Origin: Candidatus Thorarchaeota archaeon SMTZ1-45
GTDB taxonomy: Archaea; Asgardarchaeota; Thorarchaeia; Thorarchaeales; Thorarchaeaceae
Reading direction: 5' to 3'
Length of the DNA stretch: 62,761 nt
NCBI GenBank assembly: GCA_001563335.1
Contig: LRSL01000001.1
Coordinates: 1 to 62,761, forward strand
Shown in pieces: positions 4,044 to 6,197 of the stretch (positions are counted from its first letter, which is position 1; the number at the start of each line of letters is the position of its first letter). The position numbers and the translations under genes were made by a program. The notes beneath the pieces were generated by a model. It did no database searches. It was not told the DNA's origin and worked only from the letters and a program-made list of their open reading frames with translations.

Positions 4044-4391
4044 ATGTTTCTCACAAAGGATGTTTCTCCAGATGAATATGAGGTCTATGAAACCCCTGGA
4101 ATGAAAGGTGTTAGGCGCAGGAATTTTCTAAATCCTGAGAACTCGTCCAAGAATTTTGCTTTACGTGCTTATACTATCGAACCTAGTGGCCATACATCTT
4201 ATGATAAGCATCCGCATGAGCATGGTGTTTACATGTTGAGTGGAAAAGCAGTTGTCAAAGTTGGAGAGGATGAATTTATACTGACACCTGGAGATGTCCT
4301 TCATATTCGTGCTAACGAACCCCACCAGTTCTTCAACTATGGGTCTGAACTAGTAAAATTTCTCTGTGTCCGAGATTTTATTTCTCCCTAG
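4044..4391 (+). CDS. cupin domain protein
   Basis: HPHEH...G and GD.LHI.ANEPH cupin motifs. Confidence 0.88.
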   Translation: MFLTKDVSPDEYEVYETPGMKGVRRRNFLNPENSSKNFALRAYTIEPSGHTSYDKHPHEHGVYMLSGKAVVKVGEDEFILTPGDVLHIRANEPHQFFNYGSELVKFLCVRDFISP

Positions 4392-4728
4392 GTGCCCATG
4401 TATCCAGACAGTCCTGTACAGTAGCTATATGCGATGCTGCTGGGCCTCCACCCATTACTATAGCAACAGAACAAGCCTCCATTATTTCCTCCCTTGTTGC
4501 TCCTAGAGTAAGAGCCTGTTTTGTATGATAGACCATACATTCCTCACAAGGGTTCAGAACGGAAACCACGATACAAATTATCTCTTTGAACTTTGCAGAT
4601 AAAGCACCATCTTTGTGTACTGTCTTCTGAAGGTCTGTGAATGCATTTCTTGCCTCAGGAATATCTCGGTTTAGTGCACCAAAGTGTTTCATGAAACTTT
4701 TCAGTGTCTTTTCAACATCATCAGTCAT
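4378..4728 (-). CDS. carboxymuconolactone decarboxylase / AhpD-like protein
   Basis: GALSAKFKEII...CEECMVYH...GATREEI.EA motifs. Start set at ATG 4728 because the track extension overlaps lplA. Confidence 0.88.
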   Translation of the reverse strand: MTDDVEKTLKSFMKHFGALNRDIPEARNAFTDLQKTVHKDGALSAKFKEIICIVVSVLNPCEECMVYHTKQALTLGATREEIMEACSVAIVMGGGPAASHIATVQDCLDTWAPREK

Positions 4729-4745
4729 TCGAACATTCCCCAAAT

Positions 4746-5546
4746 TCACTGGGCTAGTAAACCCAAATTCCATTCGGACTGAGAATAGCGGCTCTGATAT
4801 AAAGCCTCTGCAGTGTTCCTCTCCTCCAATGAAAAACTTCCTTTCTGAACGGGCTTTCCCGAAATCTTCTCGATACATTTAGCTATAGCAATCTTGATTG
4901 TGTCATCTGAGGGACAACGACTTACATGGTCTGCAATGTTCGTCACATTATCTCGTTTACTCTTCATACATCGAATCCTAGCTCTGTCTCGTAGAAAAAC
5001 AGGTTGCCCCTCTGGAGGTGAAAGACTCTGATGAAGCATGGGAATATCTGATTTGATAAGCAACGTTCCATGTAGAAACGCAACATTTCTCTTAAGCCAA
5101 CCCGCAGTCCCGGTTATTTTCAAGTCATTTATCCTAATACATGAGCCAAAAGGGTCATACTTGCTGGGAATCCCAACTGATTGCAGCGCTTCAGAAACAC
5201 CACCAATGAATGTTTCATAAATTTCTTTCAATGTCTGTGGGACATAATTTGCACTACGTTTCACACATATTGAGAAATTTAGGTTTCCCAAATCGTGATA
5301 AACTGCGCCACCTCCTGTAAAACGACGAGCAATTTCGATCTTCTTTTTTTTACAGAAGGACAGGTTTACCTCTTCATGAACACACTGAAATCTGCCAATC
5401 ACAACTGCTCTCTCAGAACGCCAAAACCGCAGGGTATCTTGCTTTTCTTCTTGATCTGCTGCGACTCGAGCGATTGCTTCATCAAATGCAAGGTTTTGAT
5501 ACACATTCGTGCAATCCTCTTCTATCAGCCGCCAGGTCATCAGCAC
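4746..5546 (-). CDS. lplA: lipoate-protein ligase A, catalytic domain only
   Basis: NLAFDE, RRFTGGGAVYHDLGNLNFS, KITG, HGTLL and terminal EWN motifs; no C-terminal LplB-like domain. Confidence 0.85.
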   Translation of the reverse strand: MLMTWRLIEEDCTNVYQNLAFDEAIARVAADQEEKQDTLRFWRSERAVVIGRFQCVHEEVNLSFCKKKKIEIARRFTGGGAVYHDLGNLNFSICVKRSANYVPQTLKEIYETFIGGVSEALQSVGIPSKYDPFGSCIRINDLKITGTAGWLKRNVAFLHGTLLIKSDIPMLHQSLSPPEGQPVFLRDRARIRCMKSKRDNVTNIADHVSRCPSDDTIKIAIAKCIEKISGKPVQKGSFSLEERNTAEALYQSRYSQSEWNLGLLAQ

Positions 5547-5625
5547 ATCACTCTATTATATAATCCTATATTCTTCATACACACATTCCTGATTAGCTTG
5601 TTGTAATCATAGAATGAATTGGTTA

Positions 5626-5746
5626 GCCGGTGGCAAAATTAGGTTGCTCACCACCGGCGGGAGGCCTCAGAGCAACTGTTGAGGCTTGGAGCAGATGTCG
5701 TATTCGAGGCTGACACGAATAGTACGTGTCAACAATCAGTCTGCTC
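5626..5746. ncRNA. candidate structured non-coding RNA (four helices, kissing-loop pseudoknot)
   Basis: GC-rich intergenic island. P1 5626-33/5651-58, P2 5662-69/5680-87, loop-loop GTTGCTC(5643-49)/GAGCAAC(5670-76), P3 5689-95/5740-46, P4 5711-17/5725-31. G-U extensions slightly favour the + strand. Confidence 0.55.
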
Positions 5747-5798
5747 TTTAGAATATAAGGTCACCATGTTCTTGATTGACAAAAGGATCATTAGAAAC

Positions 5799-6197
5799 CT
5801 ATGAGAGTATGTGACCACATTCATGGCAGGTTAGCGAACCTGGACGAAGTCGAGTTCCACAATATGGACACATTCTTCCTTGTGGAGGTGTTTCTAAATA
5901 TGGGTCAGAATAAACTTGTCGCGAACCTAGTACAAATCTGCCTGAAGTGTTGATATTTCTGAGTCCAATTTGGTCTGCATAGAACTCCGTATATCCACAA
6001 TCAGCACAGGTGAAAGACTCCAAAGTAGCGGTTGAAAATCCTGGTAGGTCAATTCTGACGTGATGTTCTCCTGCTATCTTATGAGGTCCTGCTATTCTGT
6101 TGCTCCCGCATTTTGGACAAGTATTGGTTTGAATCATCTCACTTTCATGTGAGAATTTTGTCTGAAGACAAATAATGCTTTGGCAATCACTAGACAT
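5799..6197 (-). CDS. double zinc-ribbon protein
   Basis: CPKCG...CADCGYTEFY plus CPYCG...CHECG. Overlaps the cruF stop; alternative start ATG 6137. Confidence 0.75.
   Translation of the reverse strand: MSSDCQSIICLQTKFSHESEMIQTNTCPKCGSNRIAGPHKIAGEHHVRIDLPGFSTATLESFTCADCGYTEFYADQIGLRNINTSGRFVLGSRQVYSDPYLETPPQGRMCPYCGTRLRPGSLTCHECGHILS

Follow-up and report, generated by a model that had tools for sequence, protein, structure and literature searches.

A predicted structured small RNA gene with its own promoter-like box beside lplA in one family of Thorarchaeota

The window analysed here is a stretch of 62,761 nucleotides from a contig of Candidatus Thorarchaeota archaeon SMTZ1-45, and the feature under study is a GC-rich island at positions 5626-5746, inside the AT-rich gap that separates two minus-strand genes. 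One of them (4746-5546, minus strand) encodes the catalytic domain of a lipoate-protein ligase and was identified as lplA by a Pfam match (PF21948, E = 4e-43) and by synteny, the NCBIfam lipoate-protein ligase models also matching it, below their cut-offs. It is the usual downstream neighbour of the small RNA described below and is itself followed by a gene of the AhpD/CMD family. The other flank of the gap is formed by a gene for a Zn-ribbon protein of 132 amino acids (5799-6197, minus strand), and further upstream of the RNA locus come a CruF-like gene and genes encoding a UbiA prenyltransferase and a CrtD-like oxidase. A first-pass annotation, made from the sequence of the window, had named these same neighbours, and the LplA catalytic domain, the Zn-ribbon protein and the CruF-like, UbiA and CrtD-like proteins were all identified again in our searches; the letters it quoted for 5626-5746 match those of the window.

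That annotation had seen in the island a strongly folded RNA with four helices, P1 to P4. The strong folding is borne out: the region 5620-5752 reaches -50.4 kcal/mol on the minus strand (z = -5.5 against dinucleotide shuffles) and -49.9 kcal/mol on the plus strand (z = -2.9). In a model-fitted alignment of 39 homologues that represent about 13 genera, 98.2% of the cells pair, a value that falls to 30-45% after sliding the partners by 1-3 columns, and compensatory changes occur at all 20 pairs of three stems (5/5 in hp1, 6/6 in hp2 and 9/9 in hp3). Loops vary in these homologues whereas stems covary. The covariance model that had been called for thus upholds P1 (our hp3), P2 (hp2) and P4 (hp1), which are conserved and covarying, but not P3. 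The latter (GAGCAGA/TCTGCTC) has only 69.6% of its cells paired in the 24 same-genus sequences, five of its pairs being broken in 8-14 of the 24, and compensation is seen at 0/7 pairs; its outer strand (5740-5746) sits between the TATA box and the presumed start of the RNA, and its inner strand in the single-stranded segment J described below. The additional pairing proposed between TATTCG and CGAATA fares no better, with 77.8% of its cells paired and the same value reached by 71/500 shuffles, and the switch by helix swapping, which rested on P3 and on this pairing, falls with them. The 39-sequence alignment contains no supported junction or pseudoknot, just three independent hairpins that covary.

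The same alignment distinguishes the two strands. Read on the minus strand, the three supported helices comprise 660 Watson-Crick, 47 G.U and 3 A.C cells, so that pairing by the wobble test amounts to 98.6% on the minus strand vs 92.5% on the plus strand. An example is P1, in which many sequences of the genus carry GCCGATGG/CCACCGGC, an A:C mismatch on the plus strand and a G.U pair on the minus strand. This asymmetry, together with a conserved minus-strand TATA box, argues for a minus-strand RNA and contradicts the idea that the plus strand encodes a small RNA or ribozyme ending in TCTTT. It also bears on whether there is an RNA at all. The island could in principle act as DNA, in the form of protein-binding palindromes, a recombination site or an origin-like element, as its hairpins are also DNA palindromes and mobile elements have inserted there at least twice; however, strand-specific wobble (47 G.U vs 3 A.C) is unexpected of DNA palindromes, and neither a promoter box at fixed spacing nor loops that vary while stems covary fit such an element, which we consider highly improbable.

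The putative promoter is a BRE/TATA-like box, CCTTATATTC, at 5751-5760 on the minus strand (TTATAT = 5758-5753), 27 nt upstream of the first modelled base. A box of the YTTAWAT type (YTTAAAT or YTTATAT) begins 26-32 nt upstream of the model start in 65/67 homologous loci, a count that comprises 49 boxes found by a regular expression and 16 more with TTATAT, missed by the expression and read by eye. This is the usual archaeal spacing between TATA box and transcription start, and the RNA would thus begin at the foot of hp1, near 5731. As a sequence signal, this promoter of its own appears strong. The whole RNA as modelled occupies 5622-5731 (minus strand, 110 nt) and scores 123.2 bits with covariance model R1 and 91.3 bits with model R2, both described below; its modelled length of about 110 nt in the window compares with 78-128 nt among relatives. 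Transcription and both ends are what we infer from these features, the modelled 3' end being provisional.

From 5' to 3', the RNA consists of hp1, J, the hp2 core, a short linker and hp3. The 5' hairpin hp1 (5711-5731, minus strand; UGACACG-UACUAUU-CGUGUCA, the former P4) has all five modelled pairs changed on both sides. It is followed by J, an almost invariant single strand of 23 nt, GCCUCGAAUACGACAUCUGCUCC, at 5688-5710 (minus strand), whose columns are invariant in the 24 same-genus sequences and which is conserved across genera too (68-row alignment). A 3-bp helix predicted within J shows zero covariation in the 39-sequence alignment, and J is both invariant and unpaired in the consensus fold, as in the accessible seed of a trans-acting sRNA; we regard it as a candidate seed or protein site. 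The middle hairpin hp2 (5664-5685, minus strand; GCCUCA-loop-UGAGGC, the former P2), with 6/6 pairs changed on both sides and GUUGCUC in its loop, is optional in the family, being missing from 13/68 homologues. The 3' hairpin hp3 (5626-5658, minus strand; GCCGGUGGU-loop-GCCACCGGC, the former P1) is GC-rich and 9 bp long, with 9/9 pairs changed on both sides; its loop opens with GAGCAAC and its G.U pairs are valid on the minus strand alone. Across the family, the constant part is the promoter, hp1 and J, while the 3' hairpins vary or are replaced, that of genus g19 having a wholly different sequence. The unpaired bases of the RNA are poor in G (7% G, 36% C, 30% U and 27% A). In most genera at least one loop contains a CCUC(C) motif, which shares its letters with the end of the archaeal anti-Shine-Dalgarno sequence, and a CUGCUC motif recurs in the hp2 loop of genera g25 and g1. 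Downstream of hp3, a T4 run is found within 45 nt in 21/67 loci (12/67 in the control) and a T5 run in 6/67 (3/67 in the control), T-runs thus being only slightly commoner than in the control, which would make for a weak terminator signal.

A kissing interaction between the loops of P1 and P2 had also been proposed. The two partners are GAGCAAC in the hp3 loop (5643-5649, minus strand; GTTGCTC on the plus strand) and GUUGCUC in the hp2 loop (5670-5676, minus strand; GAGCAAC on the plus strand), which could form a loop-loop pairing of 7 bp. Within the genus this complement is exact and unvarying (24/24 sequences, and 28/28 with at least 7 bp), while the loop bases next to it do vary; we roughly estimate that two loops of this kind would be perfectly complementary over 7 nt by chance with a probability of about 0.002 in a single sequence. 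As the complement is invariant, the genus offers no covariation by which to judge the pairing. In three sequences it lengthens to 8-9 bp, a weak hint, two of the three being close kin. Outside the genus, the proposal finds no counterpart: complementarity does not exceed 2-4 bp in the 27 homologues that have hp2, and 13 have no hp2. The kissing loop is thus possible as a feature of one genus only. Such a contact would recall the ColE1 RNA I/II pair, in that two loops carry a perfect 7-nt complement (28/28 genomes of the genus); here, however, it would be intramolecular, it is invariant and hence beyond the reach of covariation, and its absence from the rest of the family means that it does not define the RNA.

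The novelty claimed for the element holds with respect to known families. Searching 5300-6100 with cmscan against Rfam 15, at E values up to 10, returned two weak matches at 5313-5378 and none on the element, and no match reached a Rfam 15 gathering score in the whole window; ARAGORN predicted 0 tRNA or tmRNA genes in the window. An intron-bearing, split or permuted tRNA was considered and rejected, as ARAGORN reported nothing and no cloverleaf, T-loop or BHB motif was seen by eye. C/D box, H/ACA and K-turn motifs, judged by eye against consensus sequences, were not seen either. No description of the RNA appears in the titles and abstract openings of the papers returned by full-text literature searches. 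On the basis of the sequence comparisons, we conclude that the stretch is a real and apparently undescribed gene for a structured small RNA, located on the minus strand and preceded by its own promoter-like box.

The RNA is single copy in the genome of the window. BLASTN returned 23 same-genus genomes with long matches at 78-90% identity and a 24th with a short match only (E = 0.047). Covariance model R1, built from 24 same-genus sequences (alignment A1), matches 62/86 genomes of the family. Model R2, built from 39 diverse sequences (alignment A4), matches 68/87 genomes of one Thorarchaeota order, mostly once per genome, all of them in one family and representing 11/17 genera. In a sample of the phylum, matches occur in 19/26 genomes of that family and in 1/124 genomes from 26 other families (G203, E = 0.007); the latter match is AU-rich, lacks the promoter box and was judged false. 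An exact-pattern scan of one genome per bacterial or archaeal species matched 93 stretches, 80 of which were examined. Among these 80, 40 were archaeal, mostly labelled Candidatus Thorarchaeota, some others Promethearchaeota or uncultured archaeon and one Hermodarchaeota, and the remaining listed matches were bacterial, about the number expected by chance. R1 matches 39/40 of the archaeal loci, the 40th giving E = 0.006, and 0/6 of the bacterial loci given to it. Homologues in Asgard genomes, which the first-pass annotation had proposed to collect, therefore exist, in records labelled Candidatus Thorarchaeota, and as far as the model sees the RNA appears to be confined to one Thorarchaeota family. 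Missing matches stem in part from incomplete genomes and from the limits of the model: genus g24, which the model misses, has a clearly related but diverged RNA, recognised by eye, at the same place. We thus describe a new RNA family that comprises a putative promoter, three covarying helices and an ultra-conserved single strand, and for which a working covariance model is available. Most genomes of one Thorarchaeota family carry the RNA, linked to the lipoylation locus, and it can be used for Rfam curation, for the annotation of Thorarchaeota MAGs and for the study of gene regulation by small RNAs in this lineage. To our knowledge, and judging from titles and abstract openings in the literature searched, few non-coding RNAs are described from Asgard archaea, the closest known relatives of eukaryotes.

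The position of the RNA is steady beside lipoylation genes (lplA-ahpD-like, sometimes E2). It lies upstream of lplA-ahpD and on the same strand in 22/23 other loci of the genus, the 23rd having a 1.6-kb insertion between them; the same order is found in other genera at nearly every locus with a contig long enough to show it, and three weaker matches (g26, g15) also have the RNA upstream of lplA-ahpD. This tight same-strand linkage in most genera, which weighs against an action in trans, also fits a role in cis. Copies accordingly stay upstream of lplA in most genera but not in g23 or in genome G050. In g23, 4/4 genomes keep the RNA while their LplA-family proteins are only 23-31% identical and none is encoded near it; in the one g23 locus examined (L078), a convergent ORF follows directly downstream of the RNA. 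G050 keeps the RNA without lplA within 2 kb. Conversely, lplA orthologues that are 49-54% identical are present in five genera without model matches. By eye, g16 has the Zn-ribbon gene, about 95 nt and then lplA, and g21 an E2 gene, about 120 nt and then lplA, leaving no room for the RNA in either case, and no RNA was recognised at the lplA loci of g18 and g27.

Between the RNA and lplA, a second conserved box is found, which reads ACAACAAGCTAATCAG or ACAACAGATTAATCAG in the genus and takes the form CAAG-N-TTTAAT/CTTAAG in other genera. In the window, this promoter-like box of lplA (ACAACAAGCTAATCAG, 5589-5604, minus strand) lies outside the conserved core of the RNA, and it is present in 27/28 loci of the genus. 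Its TA-rich part stands 31 nt before the ATG in 10 loci of the genus, none of which has a Shine-Dalgarno-like motif, and 45-57 nt before the ATG in 16, of which 13 have one (13/16), the pattern expected of a promoter that would give leaderless or short-leader mRNAs. In three loci of the genus hp3 ends 3 nt before the lplA box, which, together with the scarcity of T-runs, makes it likely that transcription would read through in part from the RNA into lplA.

These observations bear on two explanations in which the RNA would work in cis. In the first, transcripts begun at the upstream TATA box would continue through the RNA into lplA-ahpD, and the fold would serve as an attenuator or transcriptional-interference element, affecting read-through, processing or interference with the lplA promoter and possibly also releasing a stable RNA. 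Such a leader would account for the location of the RNA upstream of lplA on the same strand at nearly all loci of most genera, for the lack of a consistent T-tract between hp3 and lplA, for hp3 abutting the lplA box in some genomes, and for a layout, a conserved 5' part followed by variable 3' hairpins, that resembles an aptamer plus platform. However, lplA has its own promoter-like box, a long-leader mRNA would be poorly translated in the 10 loci that have no Shine-Dalgarno motif between the RNA and the ATG, the RNA is intact with no lplA following it in the four g23 genomes and G050, and lplA orthologues exist without the RNA; we therefore regard a cis leader as unlikely. The second explanation is a riboswitch; the first-pass annotation had considered a riboswitch-like or attenuator role possible. 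Such an RNA would bind a small molecule, for instance lipoate or a related metabolite, and switch lplA through alternative pairings. This explanation could invoke the location upstream of a cofactor-salvage gene, the strong structure, the conserved unpaired nucleotides and some alternative pairings in the sequence of the window. Yet the alternative pairings proposed are not conserved, the conserved core amounts to one hairpin and a single strand, neither a junction nor a pseudoknot being supported, the start near 5731 would leave no closing helix, Rfam gives no riboswitch match, and either of the RNA and lplA can occur without the other, making this explanation very improbable. The archaeal TPP and fluoride riboswitches and leader attenuators do resemble our case, in which a structured, conserved RNA likewise precedes a cofactor-related gene on its own strand, but here lplA has its own promoter-like box, the two are separable and no conserved multi-helix junction or switch was found. 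The lplA box, the RNA without lplA and lplA without the RNA together speak against a riboswitch and in favour of an independent small RNA.

We tentatively favour, with somewhat more doubt than confidence, a separately transcribed, non-coding small RNA of the minus strand that would act in trans through J and its C/U-rich loops. Transcription from the TATA promoter would start at the foot of hp1; J, which is G-poor and C/U-rich, would be kept open by hp1 on one side and by one or two stable 3' hairpins on the other; together with the C/U-rich loops it would then pair with purine-rich stretches of at least one mRNA, for instance in a Shine-Dalgarno or start region, while the hairpins would serve the stability of the RNA. 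Its steady place beside lipoylation genes suggests a role tied to the lipoylation pathway; the action in trans and any target are what we infer. The trans-acting sRNAs of Methanosarcina and Haloferax are comparable in being short intergenic non-coding genes with their own BRE/TATA promoter, and in combining stable hairpins with an exposed conserved strand that could pair with mRNAs; the present RNA differs in having no sequence or structural relation to any family described in Rfam and in being confined to one Thorarchaeota family. Another likeness is to the C-rich sRNAs RsaE/RoxS of Firmicutes, which use a C-rich layout to pair with the Shine-Dalgarno sequences of metabolic mRNAs: the unpaired regions are G-poor (7% G) and CCUC/CCUCC stands in loops and linkers. 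In contrast to RsaE/RoxS, this RNA is archaeal and shows no homology to them, its 23-nt invariant segment is not simply C-rich, and its pairing with mRNAs is conjecture.

Scans for targets gave no consistent site. Genome-wide duplex scans with J in the window's own genome returned nothing above chance-level matches; the best non-self duplex (-31.9 kcal/mol, contig C81) lies inside a coding frame and was judged to be due to chance. The best start-codon match of J in this genome is to ribosomal protein L1, with 13-16 nt of complementarity (-27.1 kcal/mol); chance alone would produce about one 13-mer match in this genome, and in five other genera the corresponding region yields just -8.8 to -18.0 kcal/mol. 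L1 was rejected as a target. Against the lplA-ahpD operon, a site about 1050-1090 nt after the lplA start recurs, but it corresponds to the codons of a conserved protein motif and its duplexes are inconsistent (-7 to -24.5 kcal/mol), so it was discarded too. The upstream 660 nt contain no site for J that is common to genera, and no consistent site emerged when the flanking genes of up to 68 loci were scanned.

The 23 nt of invariant J are also more than a seed typically needs, an observation against the trans reading, and could be a protein site. Accordingly, J and the C/U-rich loop motifs may instead bind a protein, the RNA working as a sponge, a scaffold or part of an RNP with no mRNA pairing. 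Such a protein-binding RNA would agree with the invariance of J over 23 nt across genera whose LplA is only about 50% identical, with an invariant stretch longer than a pairing seed usually needs, with the recurrence of CUGCUC (hp2 loop of g25 and g1) and of CCUC(C) in several loops, and with the failure of the own-genome and flanking-gene scans to find a conserved mRNA target. A candidate partner is the Zn-ribbon protein, whose gene stands directly upstream of the RNA on the same strand in many genera. However, this gene is not adjacent to the RNA in five same-genus loci nor in g23, and domain searches found no known RNA-binding domain in the window's Zn-ribbon protein, which leaves protein binding as a doubtful explanation of the RNA. 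A Zn-ribbon protein encoded beside the RNA in g23 was considered as the counterpart of that of the window and rejected, the two not being homologous.

More specific versions of a function in lipoylation can be put forward with less confidence. The RNA could be a riboregulator of the Thorarchaeota lipoylation module, in which J and the anti-Shine-Dalgarno-like CCUCC loops would tune the translation of genes for lipoate-dependent enzymes in trans while read-through would dampen the lplA promoter in cis; we hold this to be rather improbable, although, if true, it would make the RNA one of the first regulatory RNAs with an assigned functional place in Asgard archaea. It is extremely improbable that hp3 and the mostly conserved A that follows it would form a tRNA-like minihelix handled by LplA, which resembles class-II synthetases.

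Finally, the RNA gene has been visited by mobile DNA. In two genomes, G013 and G016, an insertion has split the gene, leaving the ancestral promoter, hp1 and the 5' portion of J on one side and the remainder on the other. That of G013 is about 6.4 kb long and carries four ORFs without family matches and a TnpB-like gene; the latter is followed directly by 19 nt that exactly repeat the 3' half of J, and an intact RNA gene comes 131 nt further on. In both genomes, the intact copy adjoins lplA and has a new TATA box and an hp1 of different sequence (GACACAU/AUGUGUC) in which the pairing is kept. In a third genome, G011, the 1.6-kb insertion that parts the RNA from lplA has on either side direct repeats of 30 nt (93% identical), which correspond to the 3' strand of hp3 and the tail. 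No integrase was recognised in the inserts. An omega RNA of the TnpB/IscB type was considered and set aside: such RNAs are encoded beside a TnpB-like gene in many mobile copies, whereas the RNA studied here is single copy and in conserved synteny. Nor was the Zn-ribbon protein retained as a TnpB remnant with the RNA as its domesticated guide, as only the CxxC zinc-ribbon motifs align with the TnpB-like protein. The insertion events are compatible with a gene that is maintained by selection and also prone to insertion. They recall the tRNA and tmRNA genes that serve as insertion targets, in that mobile DNA has entered a small, conserved, single-copy RNA gene, part of which was duplicated while an intact copy was retained; the RNA differs in not being a tRNA (ARAGORN; no cloverleaf), and one of the inserts carries a TnpB-like gene. 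In archaea, mobile elements can thus insert repeatedly into a small RNA gene that does not encode a tRNA.

In many genera, the gene that immediately precedes the RNA, on the same strand, encodes a protein with two zinc ribbons. In the window this is a 132-aa protein (5799–6197, minus strand) that matches the Pfam Cas12f1-like TNB domain with 27.3 bits (cut-off 26.3), a match that stems only from its CxxC motifs. Just upstream of the group formed by the zinc-ribbon gene, the RNA and the lipoate-protein ligase gene lplA, some genomes carry a gene for 2-oxoacid dehydrogenase E2, the lipoylated substrate of LplA (L016, 1723–2967; L097, 844–2073; L223), and in genus g21 the E2 gene lies immediately upstream of lplA. 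On the other side, an ORF of the AhpD/CMD family, listed with 166 aa (window 4378–4878, minus strand), shares about 130 nt with the end of lplA. Since conservation in many relatives begins only at residues ~48–51, the true start of this ORF is probably later than listed.

The promoter-like box of lplA was compared between window positions 5546–5604 and the equivalent region of loci L006–L028, and two spacing classes were found inside one genus. In one class the box lies 31 nt from the ATG and there is no SD (leaderless type); in the other the distance is 45–57 nt and a GAGTGA-like SD is present, the longer spacing having arisen when about 26 nt were inserted. A weak PreQ1-riboswitch-like match at 5338–5378 on the minus strand falls within the lplA coding region; it scores 16.2 bits, where the gathering score is 39 (E = 1.7), and is almost certainly due to chance.

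The RNA gene itself is split in L097 (2501–9139; contig C21 of genome G013), where it is interrupted by an insertion of ~6.4 kb, and also in L018 and L096 (G016). The G013 insert contains a gene for a 447-aa TnpB-like protein and four ORFs for which no family matches were found. Immediately past the TnpB-like gene, a 19-nt stretch exactly reproduces the 3' half of J, the near-invariant single strand of the RNA, and 131 nt beyond this copy an intact RNA is encountered, in which the promoter box differs and the 5' hairpin, hp1, is compensated. The 19-mer occupies the position expected of a TnpB guide. In L219 (G011, contig C346), a 1.6-kb insertion separates the RNA from lplA and is bordered by 30-nt direct repeats (1085–1114 and 2721–2750, 93% identical) consisting of the 3' strand of the 3' hairpin, hp3, and the tail. 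It includes a 255-aa ORF without a match in Pfam or PHROG, and looks like a second, independent insertion event in the RNA gene.

J is also complementary over 13–16 nt to the region around the start codon of the gene for ribosomal protein L1, which belongs to an L11-L1-L10 operon (~2098–2125 on contig C34 of the SMTZ1-45 genome); in five other genera this complementarity is not preserved.

In genome G020 the RNA occurs twice, on the short contigs C152 and C119 (L015, L095), each time adjoining lplA-ahpD, and a strain mixture in the MAG bin is more likely than a true duplication. Finally, a diverged homologue, missed by the covariance models, is present in genus g24 (L222, G065), ~250–90 nt upstream of lplA. 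It combines the box GCTTATATT with a 5' hairpin, a J-like strand in which UCGAAUAC is retained, and a 3' hairpin formed by GUCGGUGAC/GUCACCGGC with the loop CCUCCCUCCCC.
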